A stretch of 64,000 nt of DNA from an uncultured Candidatus Poseidoniales archaeon (GCA_964645485.1 CAZXZO010000002.1:57108-121107); one strand, 5' to 3'; shown: positions 1 through 63,362, numbered from the stretch's first letter. Notes: generated by a model not told the origin, from the sequence alone. Numbers and translations: made by a program.

Positions 1-765
1 ATTTCACTACTACCTCTCGCAACCCAGACAGAAGGGGTTTGGACATACTCTACGAGAATCGATTTTGATGTGAACCAAAAAAATCTCTTGCCAAATGATG
101 ACTTGGTAATATGGATTGTTGGTACCGATTTAGCAGGCCATTCCTTAGAGGGACTAGGGACCGAAGGTAATAGTAGACTAACAGAACTACGAGTCATATT
201 CTTCCAACCAGTACTCTCGGAATTAACCGTTAGCCCATATAATCCGACTGTTGAATCTGTTTTCAGCATTGATGGTAGAGTGCTGAATGAGGGAAATGAT
301 ATGGGGGTAGTCAAAATTGGACTATGGGCTTGGCAATCTGGTAGTGGAGGGCGTTATCTCATTTTAAATGAAACAAATTTAACACTTTTACCTCAACAAC
401 ATGCGTTTTTCACCTTTTCACAAGAGGCTTGGGCTTCTGGTGATTTGCAATTGTATATCGCAATAAATGATGATGATACAAATTTGACAAGCGTCCCTGT
501 TGGTCTAGTTCGTGAGCAATCTGCTGGTGAAATTTTATGGCAAAATCTTGACTCACCAGCAGCAATTGGTTTGATGATTTTACTAATATCAGTCGTTTTG
601 ATGGTTGTTACTGCAGCGATAAGACGTAGTGATGAAGAATGGGATGATGAAGAGGACGAAGATGCTCCGCCTCCACCTCCGTGGGCTCCGGATGAATGGC
701 CCGAAGGTGCAGGACCTCCACCCGAAATCCTAACTAAGAGCACATCAATGCTTGAGGAAGAATGA
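1..765 (+). CDS. 3' part of a membrane-anchored surface protein (5'-truncated by window edge)
   Basis: Frame is open from base 1 (ISLLPLATQTEGVW...) to TGA 763-765. One C-terminal hydrophobic helix (AAIGLMILLISVVLMVVTAAI), then RR and an acidic/Pro-rich tail ending LEEE. Confidence 0.8.
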   Translation: MSLLPLATQTEGVWTYSTRIDFDVNQKNLLPNDDLVIWIVGTDLAGHSLEGLGTEGNSRLTELRVIFFQPVLSELTVSPYNPTVESVFSIDGRVLNEGNDMGVVKIGLWAWQSGSGGRYLILNETNLTLLPQQHAFFTFSQEAWASGDLQLYIAINDDDTNLTSVPVGLVREQSAGEILWQNLDSPAAIGLMILLISVVLMVVTAAIRRSDEEWDDEEDEDAPPPPPWAPDEWPEGAGPPPEILTKSTSMLEEE

Positions 766-782
766 CAAAGGGAAGCATCCAC

Positions 783-807
783 CAAGTTACCACTCAGGGG
801 TACCCGA
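783..807 (+). repeat. Imperfect upstream copy of the tRNA-Leu leader and 5' end
   Basis: CAAGTTACCACTCAGGGGTACCCGA (783-807) vs CAACTTAC-ACGCAGGGGTACCCGA (967-990). The 13-nt core CAGGGGTACCCGA is identical (795-807 = 978-990). Confidence 0.8.
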
Positions 808-808
808 C

Positions 809-835
809 CTCTCACCGCGGGCGCAGCGGTGAGAG
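809..835. other. Perfect 10-bp GC-rich hairpin
   Basis: CTCTCACCGC (809-818) is the reverse complement of GCGGTGAGAG (826-835), 7-nt loop. A small CGGC-TTC-GCCG hairpin follows. Confidence 0.75.
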
Positions 836-937
836 AGTTTTCGGCTTCGCCGCGCTGCGTTTGAATAACAAGATTTCAATTGTCACAGGCCCATTTTCTT
901 GTTGTTTACCCTGTGAAACCGAACCCAGCTTTGACCG

Positions 938-947
938 TATATTTGAA
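938..947 (+). promoter_or_regulatory. Probable TATA box of tRNA-Leu
   Basis: TATATTTGAA lies 30-39 nt upstream of the mature tRNA 5' end at 977. Confidence 0.5.
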
Positions 948-976
948 GGTGGATTGGCTTCCCCCTCAACTTACAC

Positions 977-1058
977 GCAGGGGTACCCGAGCGGTCAAAG
1001 GGGGTGGGCTCAAGATCCACTGCTTAGTGCTTCGCAGGTTCGAATCCTGCTCCCTGCA
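977..1058 (+). tRNA. tRNA-Leu (anticodon CAA)
   Basis: Acceptor GCAGGGG/TCCCTGC plus discriminator A. Anticodon arm GTGGG-CTCAAGA-TCCAC (CAA at 1011-1013), long variable arm, T arm GCAGG-TTCGAAT-CCTGC. CCA not encoded. Confidence 0.97.
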
Positions 1059-1542: not shown

Positions 1543-1682
1543 CCAACCAATTTCATTCATTCTCCTTCCTCACTGCAAATTATTCTATCTAAATGAATGT
1601 TGACAAAGGCAGTAAAGGTAAGTGAATTCTCCAATATAAAAATCACTTTTCCAATTGAACAATATGTGGTTAATTCATCATA

Positions 1683-4968: not shown

Positions 4969-4977
4969 GGTGAATAA

Positions 4978-5574: not shown

Positions 5575-8184
5575 TTGAAGAAGCAGGTCGTTGGTGGAAG
5601 CGATCATTCACTTGCTGAATTACGTCATGAAATCACTGGTACAGATTCACCATCTTTGGAGAGAGCCGGCCAGATTACTAAGAATTTGACTAACGAAGAA
5701 GGTCTTCGCCGTAGCCTTGGAAGAGAACGCCGTCTTAGGTTGAAAGACCAAGCAGAAAGGCTCTCCGCTGCTAAGGGCTCAATGGGCCGTGCTCTCCAGA
5801 TGGAACACCAATCTATTCTCAAGAATCTTGAGTCAGAAATGCGGAGTGAGATGGAATCAGAACTTTCGCGTCTAGAGAAAGAAACACTTGGTCGGGAAGA
5901 AGAGATATTACGCGAAGAATTGGATATGAGGCTTGAGCGTGAAGAGATATCACTTCGAGAGCAACTAGAGGTTGAACGGGAACGCCGCCTAAGTGCAAGC
6001 CGTGAACAACTTCACTCACAACTTTCCAGTGATATGAACAAAGAGTTTGACCGTCGTCGCGCATTTTTACAGGAGAAAATGGAAATTGAGGCAACCCAAG
6101 CACTCCAGGAACAGTTGTCGAGTCTAGAATCAGAATTGAAAGAAGAGATGGAAGTTCAATTAAAGTCTGAAGAGACACGCCAAGCAGAAATCATTGAAGC
6201 TGAGCAACATTCACGTCTTTCAGAAAGGGAAATACAACTCCGGGATGGAATTCGCCGTCGCCTTGAGGGGCAATTACGCAGTCGTCTGCGCGCTCGCGAG
6301 GCTCGCCTCAGAAGCGAGTATGAACATCGCGCCCATAGAATGGAGGAAGAGATTGCAAAAGACCTCCAAGACGAACTAGAGCAACGCCTTACATCGGAAA
6401 CCGAACAACTCGAAGAGCGAATGCAACAAGATTTGGAGTTAGCAGTTGCGCGTAAACGCGATGAAGTGCGAGCATCCATTCTGAATGAACTTCAAACCCA
6501 GTATGGTGAACGAATCGCAGAACGGAAACAGCGTCTCCGTGAGCGTTATGACTTAACTTTCAGTCAGTCAATTGATGAGATTGAACAAGCTCTAAACATC
6601 GAATTGGAAGATGTCCTTCAAGATCGAATGGAGGGTGAATTTGAAACTTACCGCCGTTCACGAGAATCTGAAATATCTAGTCGCCTATCTCGATTCCGCC
6701 ATGATAGAGAAATTGAACTCCGACAACAACTAACTTCATCCTTTGAAGGTAGGAAGCAAGAATGGATTGACCAATTAGAACAAGAATACCGCTCTAAGGA
6801 GTCAGCAGTACAACGACAAATTATGGCTGAGATTGATGCTCGAGTTCGTAACGAAAAGATATCTCAAGAGACCTCACTTGACCTGTTAAAGCAGGAGACC
6901 TCAATGGAACTTGAGGTAGAGATGGAATCAAGACTACGAGAGTTTAGATCTAGAAAGGAAACAGAAGTAACCGATCAATTAGAACGCCAACTTTCCAAGC
7001 GTGAAGAAATTATGCGTAACAAAGCCCTCATTGAAGTTCGCCGCCGTGAATCCGAAATACGTGCAGAAATTGAAGCACAACTTGCAGTAAAGAGAGCAGA
7101 AATTCGTGAGCGTCTTGCAACACTTGAGCAACGCTCAGAAGAATTCAAACAAGTTGCAGAAGAAAAGATTCGAACACAACTTGAGCGTAATCTTGTTTCA
7201 GAGGAAGATTTGGAAGACCAAGTTCGCTTGCAGCAGTTAGAGGATGAGGCTGAAAACCTTGAGAATCAAGATACAGTATTGGACCGCCGCCAGAGATGGA
7301 TGGGTGCATTGGAAGGTGCCCAGGGCCAGATGCCTGAGACTGCTGTTCGCCAAGGTGGCCTTGTTGGAGGGGGCAGATTAGGACAACCAAAGTCATCAAC
7401 TCTTGGTGGGCCTGCAAAGGCCTCGGCACCCCCCGCTCTTGGAGCAGGTGCTGGAGGGCGATTAGCACCTTCACGAGCACCTATTGGACAGGCTTCGGCA
7501 GCAACAGCGGCCACGCCAGCAACAAAAATTCCCAAACCATCAATCGGTTCAACTATGGCTGAGCGCTTAGCACCAGTCAGAGCGCCTATCAGGGTTGAAG
7601 GTGAAGCACCTAAAGAAACCCGTTCTCTAAGTGATATTGCAGAAGAAGTAGGACTACCTGCGCTTGAAACAAAAGAACCCGAAGAACCTTCAGGCATTGA
7701 CTCACCAAAAGAGACAATCGAAGATGATTGGGATAAGGATGAAGAATTAGAAATCAGTTCAGTAATTTCAGAATTAGCTACTCTAGAAGAAATAGATGCT
7801 CAATCTCAGTCACAACCTGAAGAACCAACCCCTGTATCAAGAGGTCCGCCAGGTGGAGGCAAATTGATTCGCGATGACGTGAATACAGAGGGAAGTGTAG
7901 AGACAAAACCAGTGCGCGGTCCACCCGGGGGCGGAAAACTAGTTCGAGAAAGGCCGGAACCTTCTGAGAGGAGTCCTCCAATTGATACCACAGATATTCC
8001 AGCAGAGATATTAAAGCCAGTTCGAAAGCCAGTATTACAACCAAAGAAAATTGAAACTGCTAACATTATTTCAATGACAGACCCCGTCAAAGTACTAGTT
8101 CCTGAAGCGGCTCCAAAAGTTGCAAAACTAACTCCGGTGACCACCACTTTAACTCCAATACAAAGTTCAGAAGAAGAAGAATGA
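5575..8184 (+). CDS. Long coiled-coil protein with a disordered Pro/Gly/Glu-rich C-terminal third
   Basis: About 560 aa of E/R/L/Q-rich heptad-like sequence, no Walker motif or TM, ends SSEEEE. Start uncertain: the frame is open back to TAG 5515-5517. Confidence 0.8.
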   Translation: MKKQVVGGSDHSLAELRHEITGTDSPSLERAGQITKNLTNEEGLRRSLGRERRLRLKDQAERLSAAKGSMGRALQMEHQSILKNLESEMRSEMESELSRLEKETLGREEEILREELDMRLEREEISLREQLEVERERRLSASREQLHSQLSSDMNKEFDRRRAFLQEKMEIEATQALQEQLSSLESELKEEMEVQLKSEETRQAEIIEAEQHSRLSEREIQLRDGIRRRLEGQLRSRLRAREARLRSEYEHRAHRMEEEIAKDLQDELEQRLTSETEQLEERMQQDLELAVARKRDEVRASILNELQTQYGERIAERKQRLRERYDLTFSQSIDEIEQALNIELEDVLQDRMEGEFETYRRSRESEISSRLSRFRHDREIELRQQLTSSFEGRKQEWIDQLEQEYRSKESAVQRQIMAEIDARVRNEKISQETSLDLLKQETSMELEVEMESRLREFRSRKETEVTDQLERQLSKREEIMRNKALIEVRRRESEIRAEIEAQLAVKRAEIRERLATLEQRSEEFKQVAEEKIRTQLERNLVSEEDLEDQVRLQQLEDEAENLENQDTVLDRRQRWMGALEGAQGQMPETAVRQGGLVGGGRLGQPKSSTLGGPAKASAPPALGAGAGGRLAPSRAPIGQASAATAATPATKIPKPSIGSTMAERLAPVRAPIRVEGEAPKETRSLSDIAEEVGLPALETKEPEEPSGIDSPKETIEDDWDKDEELEISSVISELATLEEIDAQSQSQPEEPTPVSRGPPGGGKLIRDDVNTEGSVETKPVRGPPGGGKLVRERPEPSERSPPIDTTDIPAEILKPVRKPVLQPKKIETANIISMTDPVKVLVPEAAPKVAKLTPVTTTLTPIQSSEEEE

Positions 8185-15331: not shown

Positions 15332-15790
15332 TCATTCTTCGTAAATCCAATCTTCTGCTGACCGGGTCCAATCTACTAATCCCTCAGCGAACCAAAGTCC
15401 TAATTCAAATTCTGCAGTTTCTTCAGCGTCACTGCCATGGATTAAGTTGTGTCCTATATCCATCGCCCAATCCCCACGAATTGTTCCCGGGGCAGCATCA
15501 CGCCCATTTGTTGGACCGATGATATTTCGAGCCACCTTGATGGCTTCTACTCCACTCCAAGCCATGGCTACAACAGGTCCGGATGTGATGAATTTTAGTA
15601 GTCCAGGGTAGAATGGTCTTTCTGAGTGGACGGCATAGTGACTCGCCGCTAATTCATGAGAGGGTGTCAACTGCTTCAAACCCACCAAACGGAGCCCCTT
15701 TTCCTCAAAACGGGCAATAATCTTGCCAACCAATCCTCTCTGAACCCCATCGGGTTTTACCATCACAAACGTTGTCTGCATATAACTCAC
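15332..15790 (-). CDS. ndk: Nucleoside diphosphate kinase
   Basis: [30 protein letters not shown]. Confidence 0.97.
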
Positions 15791-17988: not shown

Positions 17989-18600
17989 TCATTCTTCTTC
18001 TTCGAAGTCTTCTTCGTTTATTTCGCCTGAATTCAACTTTAGATATGATGGGAGTCCCATCAATTTGTCAAACGTCCGTGAAAGAATGAGCTCATCCAAC
18101 CGGGGGCTTGTGCGTGCTAGGAATTGAACTGGTATGTTGATTACACCGTTTTCTAATCTGTATCTTCTTCTTAGATTTCCTCTAGCCTTTACTTGTACGC
18201 CGCGATATGTGCGCTTAATTTTGACTAGCCCAATGACTACGCCGAGGTCTTCACCCTGGGTGTCAAGAACTGCTCTGTCAAGTAGTTCATCGGGGGCGTA
18301 TAATTTTTCATTGATACGAACTGTGTTTCGCCATCTGCGTTGCAATTCCCTCATTGACTTCGTAAGTTTGATACTCCCATCCGACTGAATGCTGTGAAGG
18401 AGTTCTTTTGAAAGTGGAGCGAACTCAGCAGGCTTGCGCATAAATTCGTCCGCAACACCTGGCTCAACCTGTAATCTGAAAGATTGGACTCTTTCTTCAT
18501 TGGGGTGATATCTCTCCCCCACTATTACTCCAACTCGCGTTTGTTTCACGTAAACTTCTCGTTGTAACAATTCCTGTATTCTAAATGATTCATCTGTCAT
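17989..18600 (-). CDS. PRC-barrel domain protein (possibly tandem)
   Basis: LLDRAVLDTQGEDLGVVIGL fits the PRC pattern. LLQREVYVKQTRVGVIVG looks like a second copy. Ends DFEEEE. Confidence 0.65.
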   Translation of the reverse strand: MTDESFRIQELLQREVYVKQTRVGVIVGERYHPNEERVQSFRLQVEPGVADEFMRKPAEFAPLSKELLHSIQSDGSIKLTKSMRELQRRWRNTVRINEKLYAPDELLDRAVLDTQGEDLGVVIGLVKIKRTYRGVQVKARGNLRRRYRLENGVINIPVQFLARTSPRLDELILSRTFDKLMGLPSYLKLNSGEINEEDFEEEE

Positions 18601-18627
18601 ATTTTTTCCCTCTCTATTACCGTGCAT

Positions 18628-22467: not shown

Positions 22468-23358
22468 TTATTCACAAATCCTCTCAATTTCCTTTATCAC
22501 TTCATTTGCGACATCAATTCCAGTTGCTCTTTCTATTCCCTCAAGCCCAGGTGATGAATTTACTTCCATCAACAATGGCCCTCGGCTAGACTCCAATAAG
22601 TCGACTCCACCGAATTGAATGTTTAGGGATTTACAAGCGTCAATACATATTCTCTCAATATCTGGTTCAAGTTCTAATTGGTCACCGGTTCCACCTCGGT
22701 GAATATTGCTACGGAAGTCATCACCCTTTCCCGTTCTCCTCATTGCGGCTACTACTTTATCGCCAACAACAATTGCTCTGATATCAGTTCCCTTGGATTC
22801 TGCGATATACTCTTGAACAATTATTGGTTGATGTAATCTAGCAAGCACATCAATAACTGATTCTGCACTTGCAACAGTATCACAGCGCATCACTCCAATT
22901 CCTTGAGTCCCTTCTAATAATTTCAGAACTACAGGTGGACCGCCCACTGTTTTGATACACGGGTGTAAATCGGCTGCTCCTCTTGCATATGCTGTTCTAG
23001 GAATGGGTAATTCCACTGCGGCAAAACGCTGTAGAGCACGTAATTTATCCCTACTCGCCCCAATTCCATTACTTGGGTTGAGGACTGGGACGCCTGCGGC
23101 CTGAAATTGTCGGAGAATGGTTAATCCATGGCGGGTGATTGAAGCCCCAATTCTAGGCACAATACAATCCATTGGTTGCACAATTTTGTCACCATTATAG
23201 AGAACAGTTGCCCCATCGGGAGATAAATCAATTGTACATCTTGTTGGGTTGAGATAACTAACTCCATGCCCCTCTCTTCTAGCAGCAGCAGCCAATCGAG
23301 TTGTGCTGTAGAGTTCAGGCCCTTGGGTCATGATGACAATCTCAAGTCTCCGCCCCAT
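22468..23358 (-). CDS. rimK: RimK family alpha-L-glutamate ligase (bacterial RimK-like)
   Basis: PRIGASIT, RDKLR, GGPPVVLKLLEGTQGIGV, VQEYI, DIRAIVVG, FRSNIHRGG, EVNSSPGLEGIE. Colinear with E. coli RimK as I recall it. Confidence 0.9.
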   Translation of the reverse strand: MGRRLEIVIMTQGPELYSTTRLAAAARREGHGVSYLNPTRCTIDLSPDGATVLYNGDKIVQPMDCIVPRIGASITRHGLTILRQFQAAGVPVLNPSNGIGASRDKLRALQRFAAVELPIPRTAYARGAADLHPCIKTVGGPPVVLKLLEGTQGIGVMRCDTVASAESVIDVLARLHQPIIVQEYIAESKGTDIRAIVVGDKVVAAMRRTGKGDDFRSNIHRGGTGDQLELEPDIERICIDACKSLNIQFGGVDLLESSRGPLLMEVNSSPGLEGIERATGIDVANEVIKEIERICE

Positions 23359-33589: not shown

Positions 33590-34348
33590 GTGATATTCAT
33601 GGAAGAAGGCACAATTGTCTACATTGATTACGACCTGTTTGAGGTTGATTCCGGAAAACTAATTGAGACCACTCGTGAGGAGACTGCAAAGTCAAACGAC
33701 GTTCATGAAGAGTCACGAACTTATGAGCCTCTGTGCACCACTATTGGTGCTGGAGCGTTGATTCCTGGTTTTGAAGAAAGCCTAGAAGAAGCAGAAGTTG
33801 AAACTGACTACGATATTGAGATTTCACCAGACAAAGCATACGGAGAGCGTGACCCGGGTGCTGTTGAAATGTTGGGCCCACAACAATTGGCTCGCCAAGT
33901 AAGGGACCCTGACAATTTACAAGTTGGAGGACCAGTCGAAATCGGTGGCCGAAAAGGTACCTTAGTCATGTTCCGTGCTGGTCGGGCACGAATTGATTTC
34001 AATCACGAATTAGCGGGTAAATCACTGCGTTATAATTACCGAATCACAAAGGTTGTTGAAGAGAAGGACGAGATGGTAATGACTCTTCTAAAGATGTCAA
34101 CAGGTTCTGATGACTTTGAAGTAGAATTTGACGGCGATGATGTATCTATCACAATTCCAGAGTTCCTTGGATATGACCAATCATGGGGTATGGCAAAGTT
34201 TCAACTCATTCGTTCACTACGTGACACTGTTGGTGCCAAGACAATCGTGTTTAGAGATGTACACCAATTCAGAGAGGCTGCAGAAGAAGAGGAAGAAGAA
34301 CACGTCCACGATGAAAACTGTGACCACGACCATGACGAAGAAGAGTGA
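33590..34348 (+). CDS. FKBP-type peptidyl-prolyl isomerase (long type, SlyD-like)
   Basis: LIPGFEESL, PDKAYGERD, IDFNHELAGKSL. His/acid tail HVHDENCDHDHDEEE. Confidence 0.9.
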   Translation: MIFMEEGTIVYIDYDLFEVDSGKLIETTREETAKSNDVHEESRTYEPLCTTIGAGALIPGFEESLEEAEVETDYDIEISPDKAYGERDPGAVEMLGPQQLARQVRDPDNLQVGGPVEIGGRKGTLVMFRAGRARIDFNHELAGKSLRYNYRITKVVEEKDEMVMTLLKMSTGSDDFEVEFDGDDVSITIPEFLGYDQSWGMAKFQLIRSLRDTVGAKTIVFRDVHQFREAAEEEEEEHVHDENCDHDHDEEE

Positions 34349-45865: not shown

Positions 45866-46414
45866 TTATTCTTCAAACGAATCAATCAACTCTTGCAATT
45901 GACGGTGTAACTCATCAACATCTCCATCATTTTGAATTACAACATCGGCCATTGCAGCCGTAGCGATTAATGCTTGGCCACTTTCATCATGAGCCACCAA
46001 TTCAGATTCTTCTTGGCCAACAAATTGTTCAAAATTTTCAGCATCACCAGTTCGTCCACGTGAAACTAAACGCTCCCATCGCACTTCTAAGGAGGTTCGA
46101 ACTTCGATCATGATGAAATCCTTACGCTTTCTGAGGGCTTCAACCTCAGCGGGTGTCCTGATGCTGTCAATAGCATGATTACCACCTTCGCCAATTCGGT
46201 CAAGCAACATTTCTGCTAAAATTCCAGGGCCACCCATAGCACGGAGTTTTCTTCCCCCATCAATTAGATTGTCACGATTTATTTCACGGCCATTAGAGCG
46301 TAGCCAATGGCGAATAGAGTCAGAACAAGAATTTACGCCGAACCCTCGTTGTTTGAACCATTCAATCACAGTTGTTTTTCCAGACGCATTACGTCCAGTT
46401 AACCCTACCAACAT
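45866..46414 (-). CDS. P-loop nucleotide kinase-like protein (UPF0200/dephospho-CoA kinase-like)
   Basis: GLTGRNASGKT, IDSIRTPAEVE, RWERLVSRGR, ADVVIQN. Confidence 0.7.
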   Translation of the reverse strand: MLVGLTGRNASGKTTVIEWFKQRGFGVNSCSDSIRHWLRSNGREINRDNLIDGGRKLRAMGGPGILAEMLLDRIGEGGNHAIDSIRTPAEVEALRKRKDFIMIEVRTSLEVRWERLVSRGRTGDAENFEQFVGQEESELVAHDESGQALIATAAMADVVIQNDGDVDELHRQLQELIDSFEE

Positions 46415-46471
46415 TGAAGCCACCGAGTATGTCACCGTTCAAAGCAATAACGGCAATAACCAAGAATTGAA

Positions 46472-49557: not shown

Positions 49558-52500
49558 TCAATCGTCATCTTCTTCATCATATTCGTCATCAAATTCATCA
49601 TCATCGTCAAACATTAGGTCGTCATCAAACAATTCAGAACGATTCGTGAGAGCTCCCTGCATGCTAACATATGCAACAATAGGTAGAACAATCATAGCGA
49701 TAATAATTCCAATTACAGCGAGTAAGTTTTGGCGAGCGCCTTCAACCCACCCCATTCCAAATGCGTAGTCAACAGACACTCCTACACTAGCACTATTATC
49801 GGATTCGTCAACTTCCGAAATTTCGTTTTCTGTGTCAACGATTACGATTACTCTGTCAACCCCTTTCTCAGCAACCCATGTCGCAGAAATAGGAATTGCT
49901 TCATCAGCGATACCGTTCAGTTTCTGTGTGGCGAATGGTTTTTCTGAATCACCAGAATAGAATCCAACTACAAACCCGGAATTAGTTGAACCACCGAGAT
50001 TAGAAATCCATGCTGTAACCTCCACTTTGTCACCATTAGCAACAATTTCTTTATCTGCCGAAATTCGTTCTACAGTCAATTGTGCTCCTAGTGCTCCAAA
50101 CCGAATCCATTGTAGTTCGTGGTCACCATTTAGGTCAACAGGTTCTCTCACTGGGTCACTCTTCGAGTTTCCTTCAGTGGCAAGTGGGTTGCCAGCACTG
50201 TCCCAACCTTCAATCCAGAATCCGACTTCATAATCCTGAAGTGGTGGATTCATTCCGTCTCCAATCAAGTCCACAGTACCTGTCCAAGTGATTGCTTGTC
50301 CTTCTTGAAGCATCCCCAAAAGGGAGGACCCTGAGGAAATTTGGCGCTGATTCTCATCTCGCATTAACCAGTGTACCCACTGCGGGCTTCCTGAAAGGTC
50401 TGCATCTTCCCAGCCAATGAATTCTACTGGTACTTCAGTTAGAGCAGTCTTGTTAGAAATGTCAATGACATCAATCGGTGTTAGCCTTTCAAGAACTCTA
50501 GGTGGAGCGTGATCGACCTTAACTTGCAAAGTTGTTGAAACGGTGTCGCGAGTCATATCCTCACCTCTGCCAGGAATATTTCTCACTCCTGCAAGGAAGG
50601 TTCTAGTTTCACTAGAAGCAAGTGTGGTGGCGGCCCCAAGAGGGACTTCTAAACTAAATCCACCATCGTCAGTTAGGCTTCCATCGGACCAGTATTGTAC
50701 TCCATCGAAGACTTCAACTGTAATTCCCAAATTTTTCGGTGCGGGTACATCGCTACCTTCGTAAACCACTCTACCAGACCAGCGCAAACGGTCGTTAGGC
50801 ACAACCCGGCTTCCATCAAACACGGGGCCAACTCTTGGCTCTTGTACATCTTCTACGGTGTAAGTTTGAGCGTCTAGTACCAAGTCATTCTCAATTCTGA
50901 AAGTGTGCTCTGTGAAGATTTCCCTACGTGGTTCAGTACTGCCTAATTGAGTGAATTCTAAGGCGATATCTGACAGATCAGCATCAGGCCAGTCCCATGA
51001 AAATGCGAAAGCAAATGTGACCTTCACCCAAGGTAAACCTGTTTCGTTAGTAGTAACAATTCCTCCGCATGATTCATCCAGTATATTATTACAAGCTGGT
51101 GAAATTTCAAGGTAATCATCGTCAGTCCAAAATGTAGCATTATTTCCACTGAAAGATAATCTCTGTTGGTCTCTCTCTGGATCAGGTCCTTCAAAGTCAA
51201 AAATTAAAGAAATATCAGTGAAGTCAATCAAGCCGTTGGCATCAACAAGGCCGAGTGTGATATATTGAGTGGTTCCCGCAAATGCTCTTTCACCATCTTC
51301 GTGACCTGCCCAATGTAATCCGGTGAATACCGAATCCATGTCTTTTCTTGTTCTGTAGGTTACCAAGTCATAATCAAAACCGGGGCCATCTGAACGGAGT
51401 AGCGCATTGCCTGCAACATCAGTTCCGGTGACGTAATAAGAGACTCTTGCCATGTTTGGATTATTTGAATCATCAATATATGCGAAGAACAATTTGTCAA
51501 TGTCATCAGTCATATTTGTCATGGTTTGATTGACGTATTCGCCTGCATCAGCATTGCCATTACGGTTAGAGTCATGTTCTGCTTCTATCCAGTAGTGAAG
51601 AGTCAATTCTTCAGGTGCGCCAATTTCATCCTGAATTCTTATGCGCACCGCTTGGTCTTCTTGCCCTGCCTCGTAGGCATTGTCAAGAGGAGTTGCTTCT
51701 ATCAGAGTTGGACTTGTGGCATCAACTCGGATGGTTCGTTGCCATGATTGGTTGGTTGAGAGGACTTTGAGAGGGTCTCTTGGGTTGTCAATCACGACCT
51801 CGTAGAATACACCGTCTGGGCGGTCAATTGTATCTACAGGAACTGGAATAAAGAACTCTCCATATTGGTTTGACCGGTCTTTGGCTTGTACGAAATCACC
51901 TTCTGTAGTTCGCTTGACGACGGCTACATCGAAGGTAGAGTCTAGCGGTGCATCTTGAGTTCCGTCATACCAAATTGCTCCTTGGAAGTACAGCGTTTCA
52001 CCCGCTTTAATCCACTCATAATTTGGGACATCATCATGGTGCACAGCACCGTCATTGTCTCTGACTGCCAACCATCCAAGTCCATAGGATTGGTTCACTC
52101 GGATTCCTGGAGCGTTACTTGCCCGTGATGATAGAGACATTGGTGAGAGGCCTTGGTCATCAGTGCAACTGACTCTGAATCCAACATTGTCCTGTTCAAT
52201 GAAATTAGAGGTGACGCGGAAAGCCCAATGAATTTCTAAAATACCATTACTGTTATTGGTCCACGTTGCAGAAGCATCTGGAATTATCCAATCTTCGGGG
52301 TCGTCATCAATAAGGGTTCCATCACTGTTCCAAGTTAAGGAAGGAGTTTCACTTGCAGGGTATGCTAAGAAATCAAGAGTTGCAGTAGATATGCCTCCGG
52401 CATCTTCACCAATTACGTGTCTAGTTACAACTTCATAGGTGTCAATTGTTTCATGCAACACCATAGTTTCATCCCAACTAATGTCAAGATTGACTGTTTG

Positions 52501-54615
52501 CATGACGTATGTAATTGAAAATGAATTTATCACCACTTTACCAGAAGACGACGAAAGAATCTGGATTGGGATCAGTTCTGTTCCAGAGCCTGTATCTGGA
52601 ATAGCATCATTTAGGGCATTAACAATTGAACTTCCTGATGTGCCAGATGCAGTTACCGTGGAGAGTAAGGCGTTGGTATGAGTCCACTCAGCACTGCCAT
52701 CACTGCCGATGTCTAATTTCACATTTTGGGGAGCATTGGAGTAAAGAGCGACTTGGAAGTCATCTACAATTGGACTGTATGCATTGGCGCCACCAGCGTA
52801 AAAGTAGAAACAGAGGGTGAGATATGACAGAGTAGTCGGGAAGTTTACCGTTTGTCCCGGTGTATTCAAAGTCGTAGATGTCCCCGATGTGCAACTGCTA
52901 GATGTAGTCCACCTGACTGATAATGAACTACCACCTAATTCTGTTGAGTTCCACCATACTTGGGCTGCTACAGGCCCATTTGAGCTAGAACCAAAATATG
53001 GGGTTCGCATCCACATTAATCCTGAAGGTGCATAAGAGCCGGTGTAACCTAGGGCAATCGTATCTATTAAAGCAGAAACGTTGCTGTTTGTGCTGTTGAG
53101 ATATGCTCTCCATCCAAGTTGGGTTCCTGAATTTGTGAAAGTTACTCTTGTTCCGATTTGTGCTTGCTTCCAAGTCACTCCACCATCGTTTGTGACTTCA
53201 TATTCTACCGATGTTCCTGTTGGCTTCCAGGAAATTGCTGCAGTTAATGTCAAGTCCGGAGTTGTTCTAGTTGCAGTGATTGCGGATGAAGTTATTATTG
53301 TAGAAGTGGTGCTAGGTGTTCCCATTGAAGAAACAGTTGACCTTCCATTGGTGAAGATTTTGTGAGAACTTCCACTTGGGCATTGGGTGTTGTAATAACA
53401 ACTCCATGCAAGAGTCCCATCCGCTGTGCCTTCCAGTCCGAAGTGAGCATGATTTGGGAACAAAATATCTCCTTGGTGTTCAGGCCATGCCCCACCTCGG
53501 AGGAAAACCGAGTGGTAGTTTTTGGCCTTACAGTTGTTATTGCTTGAGTATGTACAGTAAACATTCACAGTTACTCTGTCGCCAGCAACATCGAGTCCTG
53601 CTGGTTGACCTTGACCACTTGGAATCATCATCAACAATTGTGTTGAAAGTGCTTGAGCGGGGCTTGAGCGGTTGACATTCCAAAGGTAGTAATTGTAATT
53701 TCCACTCACATAGCGGGATGCTACAACATACATTTCATTGTCAACTGGGTCAAAAGCAACACCTCCAATGTTGTATGATGAACCATACCATGCCTGATTA
53801 CATGACCAACTGGTCCCTGCAGAATTGACTGTCCACTTAGCGATGTAGTTGTAATTCCAACTTGTTGTCCAAATCGTACCATTTCCATCACTGGTGATGT
53901 CAGAAAGATATGCCATGGTAGAGGTCGTACAACTGTTGAATGAAAGGCTCACAGTGCCTATTTGGGCGCCAGTAGTTGTGTTATAACTCCTAATTGATGG
54001 GGTGCTGTAAAGACTGGTGCTTGACCATTGTGCGACAAAAGTTTTGCTTCCTTGGTAAGCTACAGGGCCAGCATAATTCCAAGAGCCACCAGAATACGCT
54101 GAATAACCCTGAGTAGTTGCTCCCACTAAATCAGAATCAGCCAAGCCAATAGATCCACCTGTTGTGTTGTGGACTGCATTTGGTGCACTGGAAATATCAC
54201 TCGTTCTCGTTAAAGCCCAACTCGCTTCACTTTGCATTTCTCTTAGGGATGTTTGATCGTTACCAACATCAATAGTAGTTCGATAATCATAAGAGAAGTA
54301 TGGGACATTCATAGGCCCATCTGTTGTTGAAGGACCGCCAAAGTGTGTATTGGTGCTTGCATTAGCCCAAGTAGTTGTTGAAGGTTCTCCAGTGATAGAG
54401 AAACTTGCTGATGTTACTTCTGCTCCATAAGGCATGTTTACTCCAGCAGTTCCACCATTCCCTTGACCGGCAAAGGTGTGGGAAAAACTGGTAGTGCCAT
54501 CAGCAAATTGGGTTTCAGTAGTTGCCGCGATTGCAAATGATAGCGTTGTAGACAACAGCATTAATCCGGCCAAGAAAAACGAAGTGAATTTGATTTGGTT
54601 GTTGCATCTAAACAT
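49558..54615 (-). CDS. Very large secreted, C-terminally anchored surface protein with Ig-like and CARDB domains
   Basis: Signal-like N-terminus, S/T/Y/N-rich strands, NVKLDIGSDGSAEW module, CARDB-like VTAWISNLGG...VIVDTENEISEVDESDNS, TM helix, acidic tail. Confidence 0.85.
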   Translation of the reverse strand: MFRCNNQIKFTSFFLAGLMLLSTTLSFAIAATTETQFADGTTSFSHTFAGQGNGGTAGVNMPYGAEVTSASFSITGEPSTTTWANASTNTHFGGPSTTDGPMNVPYFSYDYRTTIDVGNDQTSLREMQSEASWALTRTSDISSAPNAVHNTTGGSIGLADSDLVGATTQGYSAYSGGSWNYAGPVAYQGSKTFVAQWSSTSLYSTPSIRSYNTTTGAQIGTVSLSFNSCTTSTMAYLSDITSDGNGTIWTTSWNYNYIAKWTVNSAGTSWSCNQAWYGSSYNIGGVAFDPVDNEMYVVASRYVSGNYNYYLWNVNRSSPAQALSTQLLMMIPSGQGQPAGLDVAGDRVTVNVYCTYSSNNNCKAKNYHSVFLRGGAWPEHQGDILFPNHAHFGLEGTADGTLAWSCYYNTQCPSGSSHKIFTNGRSTVSSMGTPSTTSTIITSSAITATRTTPDLTLTAAISWKPTGTSVEYEVTNDGGVTWKQAQIGTRVTFTNSGTQLGWRAYLNSTNSNVSALIDTIALGYTGSYAPSGLMWMRTPYFGSSSNGPVAAQVWWNSTELGGSSLSVRWTTSSSCTSGTSTTLNTPGQTVNFPTTLSYLTLCFYFYAGGANAYSPIVDDFQVALYSNAPQNVKLDIGSDGSAEWTHTNALLSTVTASGTSGSSIVNALNDAIPDTGSGTELIPIQILSSSSGKVVINSFSITYVMQTVNLDISWDETMVLHETIDTYEVVTRHVIGEDAGGISTATLDFLAYPASETPSLTWNSDGTLIDDDPEDWIIPDASATWTNNSNGILEIHWAFRVTSNFIEQDNVGFRVSCTDDQGLSPMSLSSRASNAPGIRVNQSYGLGWLAVRDNDGAVHHDDVPNYEWIKAGETLYFQGAIWYDGTQDAPLDSTFDVAVVKRTTEGDFVQAKDRSNQYGEFFIPVPVDTIDRPDGVFYEVVIDNPRDPLKVLSTNQSWQRTIRVDATSPTLIEATPLDNAYEAGQEDQAVRIRIQDEIGAPEELTLHYWIEAEHDSNRNGNADAGEYVNQTMTNMTDDIDKLFFAYIDDSNNPNMARVSYYVTGTDVAGNALLRSDGPGFDYDLVTYRTRKDMDSVFTGLHWAGHEDGERAFAGTTQYITLGLVDANGLIDFTDISLIFDFEGPDPERDQQRLSFSGNNATFWTDDDYLEISPACNNILDESCGGIVTTNETGLPWVKVTFAFAFSWDWPDADLSDIALEFTQLGSTEPRREIFTEHTFRIENDLVLDAQTYTVEDVQEPRVGPVFDGSRVVPNDRLRWSGRVVYEGSDVPAPKNLGITVEVFDGVQYWSDGSLTDDGGFSLEVPLGAATTLASSETRTFLAGVRNIPGRGEDMTRDTVSTTLQVKVDHAPPRVLERLTPIDVIDISNKTALTEVPVEFIGWEDADLSGSPQWVHWLMRDENQRQISSGSSLLGMLQEGQAITWTGTVDLIGDGMNPPLQDYEVGFWIEGWDSAGNPLATEGNSKSDPVREPVDLNGDHELQWIRFGALGAQLTVERISADKEIVANGDKVEVTAWISNLGGSTNSGFVVGFYSGDSEKPFATQKLNGIADEAIPISATWVAEKGVDRVIVIVDTENEISEVDESDNSASVGVSVDYAFGMGWVEGARQNLLAVIGIIIAMIVLPIVAYVSMQGALTNRSELFDDDLMFDDDDEFDDEYDEEDDD

Positions 54616-54728
54616 AGGCGGTCCCCTAGGGACCGTTAGGGGTACCATTTCAACCCTTTGCACTTAGAACAAATCCAATTACACCGAAACTGTATCAGTC
54701 AGGAGGCCTACGAGCGCATGGGATTGAG

Positions 54729-55571
54729 ATGGCGGCAGGCAAGAAGCGGAAAAATTCGAAGCGAGGTTTGAAGGCATATTTTGGAGAAATTTGGGAGGAT
54801 AAAAGAGACCATCATTTGACAATTTTGGGAATGCTAACAGTTCTTACTTTTGCCATGATTTTATGGGCAATAGCATTCTTCTCAATGTTTGCTTCAAACG
54901 CACAACAGGAAGCCAATGGATGGGCAGATTTGACCGCAGCAACTTGGGTTGGAGTCTTACTTGCATTTGTTCTTCTATTGTTTGTTATTCCGGAGTTTTT
55001 CCATTATCTCGGAGTACGTAATTCACTTGTGGATATTCTTGAGACAGACTCTCGGGCAGAGTTACAAAAGAACAGCAAAGAATTAGATGAAGGGGCCAAA
55101 CTACTCGCCGGCGCGTGGCCTGCTAGAATTGCTGCCAAAAAGGTGGAGTTAGGTTTACGTCGCGATATGCCGGATGGCATGTCATTATCCGACACCGGTA
55201 AAACCTCATTAATTGGCACTTGGATGAATACTAAATATTCCAGATTAGCCCAGAGATTCCCCGATTCGAACCTACTCAAAGACCCTGGAATAAATAAAAT
55301 TATTATTTTCAGTTCACTGACAGGATTACTCCTATTTGTCTATAATGCCTTAATTGGACTAGCGCGTGAGTCGATAACTAGTCCCCGTAATATGACAGTT
55401 GATTTTACTTCCATCATTACAGGTGGTACATACAATGCAACTTGGGCTCCACACTTTGATTTGGTTGGTGTACTAATGATTGCAATGTTTGCAACAATTC
55501 TTTTCATGACTAGTCCAGCATCCAGTGAAGAGGATGAATCAGATAGTGACTCTATTCAAGAAGAAGAATGA
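54729..55571 (+). CDS. Multi-pass membrane protein (possibly DUF3198-like)
   Basis: Four hydrophobic helices, ETDSRAELQKNSKELDE segment, ends IQEEE. Confidence 0.65.
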   Translation: MAAGKKRKNSKRGLKAYFGEIWEDKRDHHLTILGMLTVLTFAMILWAIAFFSMFASNAQQEANGWADLTAATWVGVLLAFVLLLFVIPEFFHYLGVRNSLVDILETDSRAELQKNSKELDEGAKLLAGAWPARIAAKKVELGLRRDMPDGMSLSDTGKTSLIGTWMNTKYSRLAQRFPDSNLLKDPGINKIIIFSSLTGLLLFVYNALIGLARESITSPRNMTVDFTSIITGGTYNATWAPHFDLVGVLMIAMFATILFMTSPASSEEDESDSDSIQEEE

Positions 55572-55583: not shown

Positions 55584-56528
55584 TTGATGGCCACACCATT
55601 AGGCTGGATTCGCGAAGCATTGCTTGCAATCGGATTAATTTCGCTTTTAGTAATTGGTTTGTGGGCAACCACAGGTTCTCTTCCGCCAATGGTAGTGGTT
55701 GAATCATCATCTATGATGCATAATACTGAGGGAGAAGTTGGGGCAATTGACCCAGGTGACCTGGTTCTTGTGATGTCAACATCTCGCCGAACGAAGATTG
55801 TCAGCATGGCAGAAGCAATGGAAGTCGGTGGTGAATGGGAGGGATGGGAATATCATGGCAAACCCGGAGATGTGATTATCTACAAGAAAAATGGTGGAAT
55901 TGACACGCCCGTCATTCATCGTGTAATTCTTGAAGCAGTAGCAAATAGTACAATCTCACCAACTGATCGTTCACTTGGACTCTGTCCGCAGGGAAGTAGT
56001 TGGGACCCGATATCAATTGATGCTGATGGGCAGGCAGGAACATGTGTTCTCACATGGGATGCTCCGGGAACTACAGTATTGAATCAAGCCTCAATAAACT
56101 GGTCCTTTGACAATGTGGAATGCCCTTCAAACCCCCATGGTTTGATGGTTCAGGAGTGGGACCCAGGGCACGCAGGATACCTTACTTTGGGGGACAATAA
56201 CCGTTGTGATGTGGACCAAGGATCTCAAGCCTATCCCTTGGCAGGTGGACTTACTGATGAGAACGGAAATCGAGTTACTGCTGTACGTTCAGACTGGGTA
56301 GTTGGGGTTGCGGGTGCTGAACTACCATGGCTTGGTACAATCAAACTAGCAGCCTCATCAAATTCGGCCCAAGTAACAGGTCATAGTTGGAGAATGCTGG
56401 GAGCAACAGCGGTCATTCTTTTACTTGGGACATTTGTCGTTGAGCAGGCTACTGAAAAGTTGTTGATTGGTTCGCCTGAAATCTCTCAGGCGAATAAAGA
56501 GCAGGAAAAAAATTCCGAAGAAGAGTAA
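55584..56528 (+). CDS. Signal peptidase I (S26, archaeal/Sec11 type)
   Basis: N-terminal TM, VVVESSSMMH (Ser), GDLVLV, PVIHRVI (His), TLGDNN, GTIKL. Ends NSEEE. Confidence 0.85.
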   Translation: MMATPLGWIREALLAIGLISLLVIGLWATTGSLPPMVVVESSSMMHNTEGEVGAIDPGDLVLVMSTSRRTKIVSMAEAMEVGGEWEGWEYHGKPGDVIIYKKNGGIDTPVIHRVILEAVANSTISPTDRSLGLCPQGSSWDPISIDADGQAGTCVLTWDAPGTTVLNQASINWSFDNVECPSNPHGLMVQEWDPGHAGYLTLGDNNRCDVDQGSQAYPLAGGLTDENGNRVTAVRSDWVVGVAGAELPWLGTIKLAASSNSAQVTGHSWRMLGATAVILLLGTFVVEQATEKLLIGSPEISQANKEQEKNSEEE

Positions 56529-60015: not shown

Positions 60016-60052
60016 CGGTCCAATTTTAATCGAATTAAAGTTGAAAATTTTA

Positions 60053-61063
60053 TCAGATAATTTTGAGATCTGATTGTTTCTTATTTGCTAGTTGTTCTAG
60101 CAGATTGTCAACCACGATTTGGAATGCATTAGAGGAGTCTCCATCAGGGTCAGCCACAATTCGGTGTACCCCATCATCTCCTCCTCTAACTATACCTGGG
60201 TCAAACGGTAATTTTCCAAGGAATGGTACCATCAATTCCTTGGCCGCGGCTTCACCTCCACCACTCTTGAAAAGGTCTAGAACAACCGCCCAATCTCCTT
60301 CCTCATCAGTTTGAACGTTCATACTAACTCCTTGAGGGCCTTGGACTGTAATTTTTGAGGATGGTTCAGCAGTGCCACGTAAGTTGAATCCACTCATGTT
60401 TTCAACAACTCCTAGGCAAGGGAGTTTAAGCGTCTTAGCGAAGTTAATCGATTTCCGACTGTCAAGCAGTGCAACATCTTGAGGGGTTGTAACTACAACT
60501 ACTCCATCTATTTCTGGAAGTGACTGAGCAACTGTGAGAGGCTCGTCTGAAGTTCCCGGTGGGAAGTCAATGATTAGGGCATCCAATTCGCCCCAAGCAA
60601 CATCACCGATGAATTGCTGGATTGCACCCAACTTTACCGGTCCTCTCCAGATGACCGGTGCATCTTCGTCTTCTAGAAGAAATGCCATTGAGATTACTTT
60701 GACACCAAATGGACCTTCAACAGGATATATTTGCCCTTCTTCAACTTGTAAATCTGCGCCAGAAATCCCAAGCATTTTTGGGATATTTGGGCCAGTAATG
60801 TCGATATCCATTATACCGACTTTTTTGCCTTGTTGAGCGAGAGCCAATGCCAACCCGGTGGCAACAGTAGATTTTCCTACTCCACCTTTGCCTGAAAGGA
60901 CCATGACTTTGTGTTTAACATTCTCAGCCAGTTGCGTCATTCTTAGTTTACGTCGCATTTGGGCATATGCCTGTTCCATCTGCGCCTTCTGTTCATCAGA
61001 TGCGGCTTCTGGCTCTTGCTCAGGGGTTTTTCCATCATGATGGGAGACTGGTGAATCACTCAT
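60053..61063 (-). CDS. mrp: Mrp/Nbp35 (ApbC) family P-loop ATPase lacking the CxxC motif
   Basis: SGKGGVGKST, DIDITGPNIPKM, VIWRGP, DFPPGTSDE, VTTPQDV, GVVENMS, LGKLPFDP. Start probably ATG 61063. Confidence 0.9.
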   Translation of the reverse strand: MSDSPVSHHDGKTPEQEPEAASDEQKAQMEQAYAQMRRKLRMTQLAENVKHKVMVLSGKGGVGKSTVATGLALALAQQGKKVGIMDIDITGPNIPKMLGISGADLQVEEGQIYPVEGPFGVKVISMAFLLEDEDAPVIWRGPVKLGAIQQFIGDVAWGELDALIIDFPPGTSDEPLTVAQSLPEIDGVVVVTTPQDVALLDSRKSINFAKTLKLPCLGVVENMSGFNLRGTAEPSSKITVQGPQGVSMNVQTDEEGDWAVVLDLFKSGGGEAAAKELMVPFLGKLPFDPGIVRGGDDGVHRIVADPDGDSSNAFQIVVDNLLEQLANKKQSDLKII

Positions 61064-61214
61064 TGTCGGGGCGACATTGCGGTCATTCTTCAATCATTGT
61101 ATCAATAATTGGACGGAATAAGTTGTAACAATTAGGAGTATTTTGACGTTCACCCAAACGCAATTGCCAAAGGCAACCCACCAAAAGCACAACTGTTAGC
61201 GGGGGTGAGTCAGC

Positions 61215-63362
61215 ATGGCAGGAACAGCAGTTTACATCACTTGGGTAACTGCCTCTTTACTCGGCGGGATTCTATTGATGCCGATTTTCCGTCCTGCTGG
61301 AAAACGAGTTACATTGGCTGGATTTGTTGATATGTTTCGCCGCTACTGGCTACATATTGCATTAGTTTTCAGCATCTATGTTTGGAAAGATTTGCTTGAT
61401 GGCTTAGACCGTATTTTGATGGCTAATACCCACCTCAATATGACGCCATTTGTTTATGCTATTGAGGGCGATTTAGTTTTGTTGGTCCAACAGACATTCC
61501 TCAATGAGATGTTGACTTTTGTCTTGACTCATTATTATGTTGCAGGTTATATGCTATTGACATATACGGCCTCACTCTATTTCACATATTTTGATGACCG
61601 CTGGATGGCAGATAGAGTCTTGTTATCGATGTTCTTTGTCTATGCGCTAGCAGTGCCCTTCTACCTATTCTTCAATGTTAGAGTGACGGGAGACCATATT
61701 CCTGAAATGGAAACTTTGGCCTATCACCTTACCCCGGAGATCCAAACTTGGTTCACGAGGATTGACCCGTTCACAAATGGCATGCCTAGTCTTCACATTG
61801 GTATTCCGTTCACTGTATGGTTGGGACTTCATCGTTGGGACCACGATGAAAGATGGAAGAAATATCGGCAATTTGTCGGTGTCTATATCCTAGTCACAGC
61901 ATTTACAATCATCTATCTTGGAATCCACTGGTTTGTTGACATCATTGGTGGGATAATTGTATCCTTCTTTGCGGTTAACTTAGCAGATAAGTATCATGCT
62001 TGGTTGTGGTATCGGTTTGATGAGAGAACTTTCAATGCCAGAGTTGCATGGTTGTTAGCAGATTTCAACAATCCAAAACGAGTTCTATCTAGTTGGATTT
62101 CTAGATCATTAAATTGGTTGAAAACACCATCAACAGCACAAACTGGAACAGTCGTGATGTTGCTGCTAGCAACAACTGGAGGAGTGCTGTTGTATGATGC
62201 AACTCACCAAGATTTCCCAGCCGAGGGAGTAACTCATCCAGAAGCGGCTGCAGGTGCTGACGGCTGGTTAGTTGCACTTGATGCAAACGAAAATGGTAAC
62301 TTAAGTGCGGTCATAATTGATATTGAAAACGATAGAACATATCACGATAGCCTCAATTTGAACGAGGATGGTAATCAATCACAATGGGGTGTTGTAAACG
62401 CGTCAACAGAAGTGTTGATTTCAGAAAATCATGCAATCGTTTGGCAAGGTTACAGGATAATTACTCTGAAGTTCTCAAATCCAGGCTCTCACGCCTATGG
62501 TAGGACGACAGGTCCACTGTACACCGACCTTGCTCTTCTCGATGACTCAGAAGATGAGCGAGCCAAGTTATTCGCGATTGATGATGGTGTAGTAATTGAC
62601 TTGCAAAGCACAGAATATAATGAGGTATTCACACCAATTCCTGATGATGATGTAATTCTCATTGATGGGGGTGGGAATAGTTTAGCTTGGGTTACCCAGA
62701 GTTCACCAATGACTGCCAATATCCTCTCACTAGATGGTGTGCAGAGTAGTCTATCTGTTGAAGTCAATGTTACTGTTGATTCAGCAAAAGATGAACAAGT
62801 GCTAGCACTCACTGGTACCAACGTTGACTACGTGAACGCGAGTATAACTGGAATTGCATTTGACAAAAATCACATAGTAGCCGAGGTGAATTTGTCAGCA
62901 GTTAGCCGTTTAGTTTTGGTGAATCTTGATACGGGAGAGCAGCGAATTATCGGTGACCCTCTTTTCCCTGTAGCAAACCCTTCAATTGGCCATGGTGTGG
63001 TTGCTTGGCAACATAAGTGGGGGCTCAATTCAATAGACCCAAATAATGCTGAGTTAGACTGGGATGTGAAGTATCACATTATCTTGGAAAATCATTCCTA
63101 TCAACTTCACACTGAGGATGAGTTGAACCAGACTGAGCCACAGGTCATGGAAGGATACATTGCTTGGCTACAAGATAGTGGTGGTGAAGAACCACCAGAG
63201 GTGATAATTTACAGCCTTGAGGAAACATTTGAGCCGTATTCATCGCGAACTTTGCAAATAGCGATAATTGCTCTAATCCCTCTGTTATCTCTATGGATGA
63301 TTCAAAAACAAAGAGAAAATTTGGATTCACTAGACGAAGATTCACCCGACGAAGAAGAATGA
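61215..63362 (+). CDS. PAP2-superfamily (AUR1/IPC-synthase-like) membrane enzyme fused to a large extracytoplasmic domain
   Basis: N-terminal TMs with NGMPSLHIG and YLGIHWFVDIIGG, then ~330 aa of beta-rich soluble sequence, a final TM and a DEEE tail. Confidence 0.78.
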   Translation: MAGTAVYITWVTASLLGGILLMPIFRPAGKRVTLAGFVDMFRRYWLHIALVFSIYVWKDLLDGLDRILMANTHLNMTPFVYAIEGDLVLLVQQTFLNEMLTFVLTHYYVAGYMLLTYTASLYFTYFDDRWMADRVLLSMFFVYALAVPFYLFFNVRVTGDHIPEMETLAYHLTPEIQTWFTRIDPFTNGMPSLHIGIPFTVWLGLHRWDHDERWKKYRQFVGVYILVTAFTIIYLGIHWFVDIIGGIIVSFFAVNLADKYHAWLWYRFDERTFNARVAWLLADFNNPKRVLSSWISRSLNWLKTPSTAQTGTVVMLLLATTGGVLLYDATHQDFPAEGVTHPEAAAGADGWLVALDANENGNLSAVIIDIENDRTYHDSLNLNEDGNQSQWGVVNASTEVLISENHAIVWQGYRIITLKFSNPGSHAYGRTTGPLYTDLALLDDSEDERAKLFAIDDGVVIDLQSTEYNEVFTPIPDDDVILIDGGGNSLAWVTQSSPMTANILSLDGVQSSLSVEVNVTVDSAKDEQVLALTGTNVDYVNASITGIAFDKNHIVAEVNLSAVSRLVLVNLDTGEQRIIGDPLFPVANPSIGHGVVAWQHKWGLNSIDPNNAELDWDVKYHIILENHSYQLHTEDELNQTEPQVMEGYIAWLQDSGGEEPPEVIIYSLEETFEPYSSRTLQIAIIALIPLLSLWMIQKQRENLDSLDEDSPDEEE

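Follow-up and report, generated by a model that had tools for sequence, protein, structure and literature searches.

Why do seven unrelated proteins, encoded within one 64,000-nucleotide stretch of archaeal DNA, all finish on three glutamates, and does the RimK-family alpha-L-glutamate ligase encoded among them have a part in it? The stretch, referred to below as the 'window', is C2:57108-121107 of the 1.94-Mb, 82% complete assembly of an uncultured Candidatus Poseidoniales archaeon (G000; GCA_964645485.1), a representative of Marine Group II (MGII), which is among the most abundant groups of planktonic archaea and is still uncultured. A first-pass annotation of the window had proposed a lineage-wide C-terminal tri-glutamate tag, perhaps acted upon by RimK. 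Judged from the sequences compared here, -Glu-Glu-Glu-COOH (EEE), frequently with Ser in front, is a short linear motif that Poseidoniales genomes encode at protein C-termini and that is under purifying selection at the protein level; it looks like a tag set on the ends of the flexible tails of unrelated proteins.

A rule for the last three residues

Genes were called on the whole assembly with a simple codon log-odds score and greedy non-overlap, a procedure that gives 1502 genes and in which the choice of start codon leaves the C-termini unaffected. Forty-seven of the encoded proteins (3.1%) end in EEE. From the internal EEE rate of 4.5e-4 per position, 0.67 such ends are expected by chance, the observed count being ~70 times that rate; an expectation built instead from the Glu frequencies at positions -1, -2 and -3 (0.189, 0.126 and 0.119) amounts to 4.2 ends, and is exceeded 11 times over. 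The earlier reckoning of roughly one EEE terminus per 2000 lies close to the measured internal rate. Within the window EEE ends are denser than in the genome overall, with 7 of 50 genes (by this crude gene call) ending in the motif (hypergeometric p = 7e-4), and all seven termini are found where they had been reported, at stops 765, 8184, 17989 (minus strand), 34348, 55571, 56528 and 63362. Their description as 'exactly EEE' stands in that each has three terminal Glu, but not as an upper limit, as two of the seven (SSEEEE and DFEEEE) have four.

Across the genome, terminal Glu runs of one, two, three and four residues occur 201, 36, 41 and 6 times, and runs of five or more are absent; three is therefore commoner than two. 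Position -4 of the EEE tails is occupied by Glu in 6/47 cases (12.8%), which is background for these tails (10.9% Glu). The rule is that the last three residues are Glu, without an upper limit of three and with position -4 unconstrained as regards Glu; Ser is enriched at this position (13/47 tails; p = 3e-5). Upstream, the tails of EEE genes are disorder-like in composition, with an excess of S, E, P and K and a shortage of G, R, C and aromatics, and 47 proteins have the features of a bS6-type acceptor tail, i.e. at least two terminal Glu on a flexible, acidic tail.

All eight acidic triplets are about equally frequent within proteins, yet EEE is the sole one enriched at the terminus (EEE 47, DDD 4, EDE 5, DEE 3, EED 3, DDE 1, DED 1, EDD 0). 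This comparison of terminal tripeptides with internal acidic runs leads us to reject generally acidic tails as the source of the excess, since DDD, EDE, DEE and EED stay at 0-5 despite their like internal frequencies. The ratio of GAA to GAG in EEE tails is 103:38, against 70:30 genome-wide, such that there is no synonymous preference; stop-codon use in EEE genes is that of the genome; and the gene downstream is co-directional in 65% of EEE genes and in 65% of others, with similar gaps. A constraint imposed by a ribosome-binding site or gene overlap, which had been raised as a way in which the pattern might be explained away, is likewise rejected: EEE is independent of the genes downstream, whose orientation and spacing are as elsewhere, and it is GAA rather than GAG that predominates. 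Repeat slippage is unlikely given the mixture of GAA and GAG and a longest run of four. In short, none of these three explanations accounts for the excess.

Range, conservation and cellular side

For comparisons at the DNA level we used the pattern GARGARGARTRA, which represents EEE followed by TAA or TGA, with permutations of the codon order or the reversed pattern as controls. It occurs 48 times in G000, against 3-7 times for the codon-order permutations. The first 40 relatives, comprising Poseidoniales of three families and ten genera, contain 30-66 matches against 0-10 for the reversed control, and some smaller Poseidoniales genomes in wider samples contain 19-26 against 2-12; every Poseidoniales genome sampled thus has 19-66 EEE-stop sites against 0-12 for the control. 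Among 200 genomes of the phylum the Poseidoniales alone stand out, other lineages lying mostly near control with a few mildly raised. Thirty genomes of the sister order(s) in the same class have 1-16 sites each; in terms of density, the sister genera g18 and g115 have ~2 and 7-10 sites per Mb where the Poseidoniales have 25-30, and at the gene level EEE ends number just 2/356 (G233) and 1/213 (G067) in the sister order. The peak at three residues is replicated in 400 kb of a genome from another Poseidoniales family (G026; 50% GC), where Glu runs of one, two and three number 51, 3 and 7. The claim of a lineage-wide motif is upheld, in that EEE is order-wide in the Poseidoniales whilst the sister order is without such enrichment.

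When open reading frames ending in EEE are taken from two other families (G026 and G027), about 11 of their 26 G000 homologues also end in EEE; further homologues end in SEE, LEE, EQE or EDE, and the preceding residues differ. The FKBP-type isomerase of the window has an orthologue in family f2 that ends DEEE after a different linker, the 314-amino-acid membrane protein (stop 56528) has one in the same family that ends WGEEE, and in all FKBP, SdhA and several membrane proteins keep EEE across families.

Conservation is most complete in ribosomal protein eL43 (L37Ae), which ends in EEE in 30/30 Poseidoniales genomes through linkers that vary in both length and sequence, and with the motif encoded by four synonymous codon combinations. 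Here EEE closes an extension of ~40-60 amino acids, the whole of which is missing from the eL43 of the sister order (~75-85 amino acids). Among public eL43 cluster representatives, 113/120 end in EEE, the run being exactly three in 112 and preceded by Ser at -4 in 81. Only two ribosomal proteins end in EEE in G000. The other, eS31, was considered as a second conserved ribosomal carrier and rejected: EEE is present only in G000 (the sampled congener G001 ends TSEED), with one independent gain in another family. In three eL43 variants (P0053, P0059 and P0061) the stop after ...TEEE has been converted to Arg or Cys, adding 12 residues and burying the motif; these could serve as natural loss-of-motif controls.

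The carriers span many Pfam families, about half having no Pfam family at all. The soluble ones are cytoplasmic (eL43, eS31, SdhA, GyrA, ScpB, FKBP, three ABC ATPases, a SpoU methylase and Tpt1), and those in the membrane include transporters and type-I membrane proteins. From the orthologue comparisons, EEE became established long ago on some proteins, while on others it has come and gone repeatedly, as is usual for short linear motifs that a general system reads; as with other such motifs, it is fixed in position (here at the extreme C-terminus), follows variable linkers and recurs in unrelated families. The earlier suggestion of selection at the protein level is borne out, the motif being specific for Glu, neutral between GAA and GAG, and kept in orthologues while its flanks vary.

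Which side of the membrane do these tails face? At least one transmembrane helix is predicted in 64% of EEE proteins against 38% of the rest (p = 7e-4), with EEE found in 6-7% of multi-pass and type-I membrane proteins. In the usual layout the last transmembrane helix is followed by a short tail that starts with K/R and ends with EEE, and it is because EEE tails follow such K/R-flanked last helices that we tentatively place these ends in the cytoplasm. EEE occurs in 0/98 signal-only proteins of G000 and 0/20 of G026, a deficit of marginal significance obtained with a crude hydropathy predictor; by the same crude hydropathy topology, 1/27 EEE proteins from relatives is N-anchor-only, where the expected share is ~6.5%. 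The tails appear to face the cytoplasm.

A separate bias affects the last codon of Poseidoniales genes. Glu occupies the last position in 19-20% of their proteins, against 7-8% in the sister order, and when EE and EEE genes are removed the codon before the stop in G000 is still enriched for GAG (3.1x), AAG (2.8x), AGG (2.1x) and GAA (1.7x), with A at nucleotide -2 at a frequency of 0.45 against 0.29; the bias towards NAG codons is replicated in G026. Terminal Glu is found in 18.4% of signal-only, probably exported proteins and in 17.5% of proteins without a transmembrane helix, and because secreted-like and cytoplasmic proteins share the bias at -1 it is not something read in the cytoplasm. 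NAG-before-stop is probably a lineage-specific termination context (a clean case of such, being specific to the order) and is distinct from the EEE motif: unlike at -1, the EEE codons at -2 and -3 follow genome usage, run lengths are non-monotonic, and signal-only proteins are without EEE.

Candidate readers of the tri-glutamate end

The genome encodes two RimK-family genes, both with a full ATP-grasp and pre-ATP-grasp. The short RimK in the window (22468-23358, minus strand; 296 amino acids, flanked by the genes for deoxyhypusine synthase and UvrB) scores 181 bits against PF08443 and 95 bits against PF18030; the long RimK (C2:26904-28109, minus strand, ~29 kb upstream of the window; 401 amino acids) scores 185 and 97 bits. 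The two pass the TIGR00768 subfamily cut-off of 143.4 bits (240.3 and 239.6), score best against the S6--L-glutamate ligase equivalog NF007764, if below its cut-off of 331 (286.5 and 268.7), and with the LysX model reach just 135-139 bits, its cut-off being 276. No match to bS6 (PF01250) was obtained in G000 by a search whose control matched 10 bacteria and no archaeon, though public records label the long RimK 'S6--L-glutamate ligase'.

It was the short RimK that had been put forward in connection with a lineage-wide tag, a role that we cannot support: a close orthologue (70% identity) was found in just one of ~35 sampled Poseidoniales genomes besides G000, because of which this sporadic, accessory paralogue cannot account for a trait found across the order. 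The long RimK occurs in 34/35 sampled Poseidoniales genomes, and a true RimK (>220 bits) is lacking in 24/30 genomes of the sister order. Below threshold, at 17-20 bits, its C-terminal extension of ~110 amino acids matches TrkA_C and RCK-like Castor/Pollux models, which suggests a ligand-regulated glutamate ligase.

In 20 Poseidoniales genomes, covering both families, the neighbourhood of the long RimK consists of a SAP-domain protein, an unknown protein (c4), RimK itself, a Xer-like integrase and a second unknown protein (c2). The last of these (C2:23594-24601, minus strand, in G000; ~300 amino acids, no Pfam family) lies 1-3 genes downstream of RimK and ends in EEE in 9/15 genomes, right after a conserved [IV]P[FL]VDL[TS] sequence in a disordered tail. 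A predicted model of c2 (predicted local distance difference test, pLDDT, of 77) contains a beta domain, a helical bundle and the disordered tail; Foldseek gave no match to it at E <= 0.001, and all that VIA-align gave was matches to generic helical bundles, with Z no higher than 9.5, over residues ~170-257, the beta domain being barely tested. No peptidase-like fold was seen in the model. Separately, the [IV]P[FL]VDL[TS] motif resembles the SUMO-interaction motifs of eukaryotes.

What, then, would read the motif? RimK-family enzymes act on the C-terminal Glu of proteins, as in bS6 (-EE) or in the action of LysX on LysW. Our preferred answer, which we hold tentatively and with rather less than even confidence, is that the tri-Glu end is an acceptor, or primer, for glutamylation by RimK: the free end would serve as acceptor for the ~400-amino-acid paralogue with its weak RCK_C/TrkA_C-like C-terminal domain, and this enzyme would add further Glu, as bacterial RimK does to the -Glu-Glu of bS6. 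We rank this model first because RimK is the only family present that is known to act on protein C-terminal Glu, because the genome has an S6-ligase-like RimK but no bS6, leaving the enzyme an orphan, and because a ribosomal protein with an SEEE tail parallels what is seen in bacteria; the Ser at -4 in 13/47 tails recalls the ...DSEE with which E. coli bS6 ends. The occurrence of the long RimK in all but one of the sampled genomes of the order, and the EEE ends of its neighbour c2, are further points in favour. Together they make the link to RimK plausible, and from them we infer both that RimK would be the reader and that Glu would be added.

Several observations weigh against this model. The retropepsin-like eraser RimB (PF05618), encoded by the usual neighbour of rimK, has no match in G000. 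The co-occurrence of the long RimK with the motif carries little weight because it represents a single evolutionary event, and elsewhere in the phylum families with true RimKs (>200 bits) give pattern and control sums of 153 and 35, ~4 sites per Mb against the 25-30 of the Poseidoniales; RimK by itself is not enough to give the signal, RimK-positive lineages elsewhere being only weakly enriched. In one such RimK-positive family (f23), those EEE proteins for which G000 has a homologue match G000 proteins with a different ending; some EEE ends in this family are real, but given their low density, a GC content of 67% and the non-EEE homologues, we discarded it as uninformative about independent co-occurrence. 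In sister genus g115, density is 10.1 sites per Mb in the six RimK-positive genomes and 7.1 in the 14 RimK-negative ones, a contrast that we have dropped as an argument, the difference being too small and the genomes related. A 93% complete genome (G093) has no RimK match yet its eL43 ends SEEE. Some EEE ends lie just 6-10 residues past a transmembrane helix, and so maybe beyond the reach of a tetrameric ligase, and if the ligase extends tails, the need for three encoded Glu is not obvious, two sufficing in bS6.

Almost as likely as a RimK acceptor, if doubtful in its own right, is that EEE is a docking motif for a different cytoplasmic reader—a binding domain of the carboxylate-clamp type, a protease adaptor, or a factor for assembly or quality control—that controls stability, turnover or assembly without any Glu being added. 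Whatever speaks for a selected motif, fixed in position and facing the cytoplasm, speaks as much for such a reader, RimK tracks the motif weakly outside the Poseidoniales, and the enrichment of EEE on membrane-protein tails would fit a reader close to the membrane, such as a membrane-bound protease or scaffold; set against this, no candidate was found, with searches of G000 for the Tricorn and S41 C-terminal proteases (PF14684 and PF03572), considered as readers and rejected, finding neither, and with c2, the neighbour of RimK, lacking an informative fold.

Readings that dispense with a dedicated reader fare less well. EEE might be a passive cap against the cell's own carboxypeptidases, or an aid to solubility: MGII archaea are peptide degraders, G000 carries several M14 and AstE/AspA-type carboxypeptidase-like genes, the tails are disorder-like, and the motif has come and gone repeatedly, as in eS31. 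We nonetheless consider this unlikely, in that Asp should protect equally, whereas neither DDD nor mixed D/E ends show enrichment; that the three-residue rule, and 94-100% conservation in eL43 through changing linkers, indicate specific recognition; and that the sister order, with a similar lifestyle, is without the motif. An effect on translation or at the mRNA level, in which GAR-GAR-GAR before the stop tunes termination or ribosome release as an extreme of the order's stop-context bias, is very improbable. The strength of the -1 codon bias in the order, common to secreted-like and cytoplasmic proteins, would fit, as would the capacity of acidic nascent chains to destabilise ribosomes (PMC9718836). 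However, run lengths fall and rise again (2:36, 3:41), the codons at -2 and -3 are used as in the genome at large with no enrichment of other purine or NAG triplets, signal-only proteins share the -1 bias yet are without EEE, the motif in eL43 closes a conserved, added extension, and of the ribosomal proteins of G000 a mere two carry it.

How does glutamylation of EEE ends by RimK compare with known systems? The RimK/bS6 system (RimABK, in Pseudomonas) is alike in its encoded oligo-Glu end on a flexible, acidic ribosomal-protein tail, in the RimK ATP-grasp ligase and in the Ser that precedes the Glu run; it has one acceptor with two Glu, however, whereas the Poseidoniales have eL43 plus ~3% of the proteome, membrane proteins included, with three, and differ further in having no bS6, no RimB or RimA, and a ligase with an extra RCK_C-like domain, the modification itself being here only proposed. 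In the papers searched, RimK is described for bacterial RpsF alone (PMC4741518, PMC7343187, PMC11957791). In the archaeal LysX/ArgX-LysW system a RimK-family ligase again acts on a protein's C-terminal Glu, but the carrier there is one dedicated protein, LysW, with the end ...EDWGE, the chemistry involves the gamma-carboxyl, and the RimKs described here fall far short of the LysX model. Tubulin polyglutamylation, with its TTLL writers and CCP erasers, shares Glu-rich acidic C-terminal tails, ATP-grasp ligases and M14 carboxypeptidases; TTLLs, though, belong to another writer family and make gamma-linked branches on internal Glu, and any eraser of EEE tails would be hypothetical.

Two further systems resemble the motif as a recognition signal. 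The EEVD-COOH of Hsp70/Hsp90, read through its free carboxylate by the carboxylate clamp of TPR co-chaperones, is a short acidic motif fixed, like EEE, at the very C-terminus beyond a linker that varies, but it is confined to two chaperone families, where EEE is found on dozens of unrelated ones. The human CRL4-DCAF12 C-degron similarly uses the last two or three residues, twin Glu included, as a proteome-wide signal; -EE destabilises human proteins and is depleted, whereas EEE is enriched and conserved in the Poseidoniales, and archaea are not known to have cullin ligases. We found no description of a tri-Glu terminus in the literature on Poseidoniales/MGII C-termini, RimK or polyglutamylation. 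A conserved tri-Glu tag on ~3% of MGII proteins points to an undescribed cell-wide system of modification, recognition or turnover, and the EEE proteins are concrete candidate substrates for an orphan 'S6-glutamate ligase' without S6.

A more ambitious form of the RimK proposal, and as a whole quite unlikely, is that the Poseidoniales run a proteome-wide alpha-polyglutamylation code in which a ligand-gated RimK, controlled through its RCK_C-like domain, would extend SEEE primers on eL43, on respiratory and DNA enzymes and on the cytoplasmic tails of dozens of membrane proteins, with an M14 or AstE-like carboxypeptidase to trim them. If true, this code would give prokaryotes an equivalent of the tubulin code, acting on ribosomes and the membrane proteome. 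N-acyl amides are cleaved by AstE/AspA-family enzymes to yield Glu or Asp. G000 encodes an AstE/AspA-type (M14-like) hydrolase of 569 amino acids (C1:100568-102277, plus strand) that has no signal peptide and carries an acidic tail, ...AEEEDAEEEF; it is a conceivable candidate for a Glu-trimming enzyme.

Carriers in the window and minor observations

Working along the window, the first carrier is the 3' end (1-765, plus strand) of a gene for a 2097-amino-acid surface or membrane protein ending LEEE, the Glu codons occupying 754-762 and the stop 763-765; the protein has a signal-like N-terminal helix, and its last transmembrane helix (residues 2032-2050) is followed by the tail. Next are two proteins with no Pfam family: one of 869 amino acids with no transmembrane helix, ending SSEEEE (5575-8184, plus strand), and one of 212 amino acids, ending DFEEEE (17989-18627, minus strand). 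The FKBP-type peptidyl-prolyl isomerase (33590-34348, plus strand) has an acidic, His-rich tail that ends HDEEE. Two successive plus-strand genes then both carry the motif, the first encoding a 280-amino-acid membrane protein with four transmembrane helices and a weak Sdh_cyt match, ending IQEEE (54729-55571), and the second the 314-amino-acid, type-I-like membrane protein (55584-56528), which has an N-terminal helix and a C-terminal anchor at residues 268-286 and ends NSEEE. Last comes a 715-amino-acid membrane protein of the PAP2 family (61215-63362, plus strand), whose last transmembrane helix (residues 679-697) precedes a tail ending PDEEE.

Our gene calls also reproduce the two further -EE ends and the one EEDDD end reported in the window: a nucleoside diphosphate kinase ending YEE (15332-15790, minus strand), a kinase-like P-loop protein ending FEE (45866-46435, minus strand) and the protein encoded at 49558-54663 (minus strand). 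Two-Glu ends such as YEE are of the type seen as decayed variants of EEE when orthologues are compared.

Sister genus g115 (G224-G251), in which EEE-stop density is intermediate and true RimK is patchy (6/20 genomes), offers a natural test bed for co-evolution. Elsewhere in G000, a protein of the animal haem peroxidase family (PF03098, 411 bits; C1:77759-79669) has a signal-like N-terminal helix, a C-terminal membrane anchor and a predicted cytoplasmic tail that ends VEEE; its gene divergently adjoins that of an FG-GAP/ASPIC protein, which also ends in EEE. In two relatives (G027:C1:119932-119955 and G030:C1:24480-24503) the two genes of a convergent pair each carry a terminal EEE, and their stops abut, zero intergenic bases lying between them.

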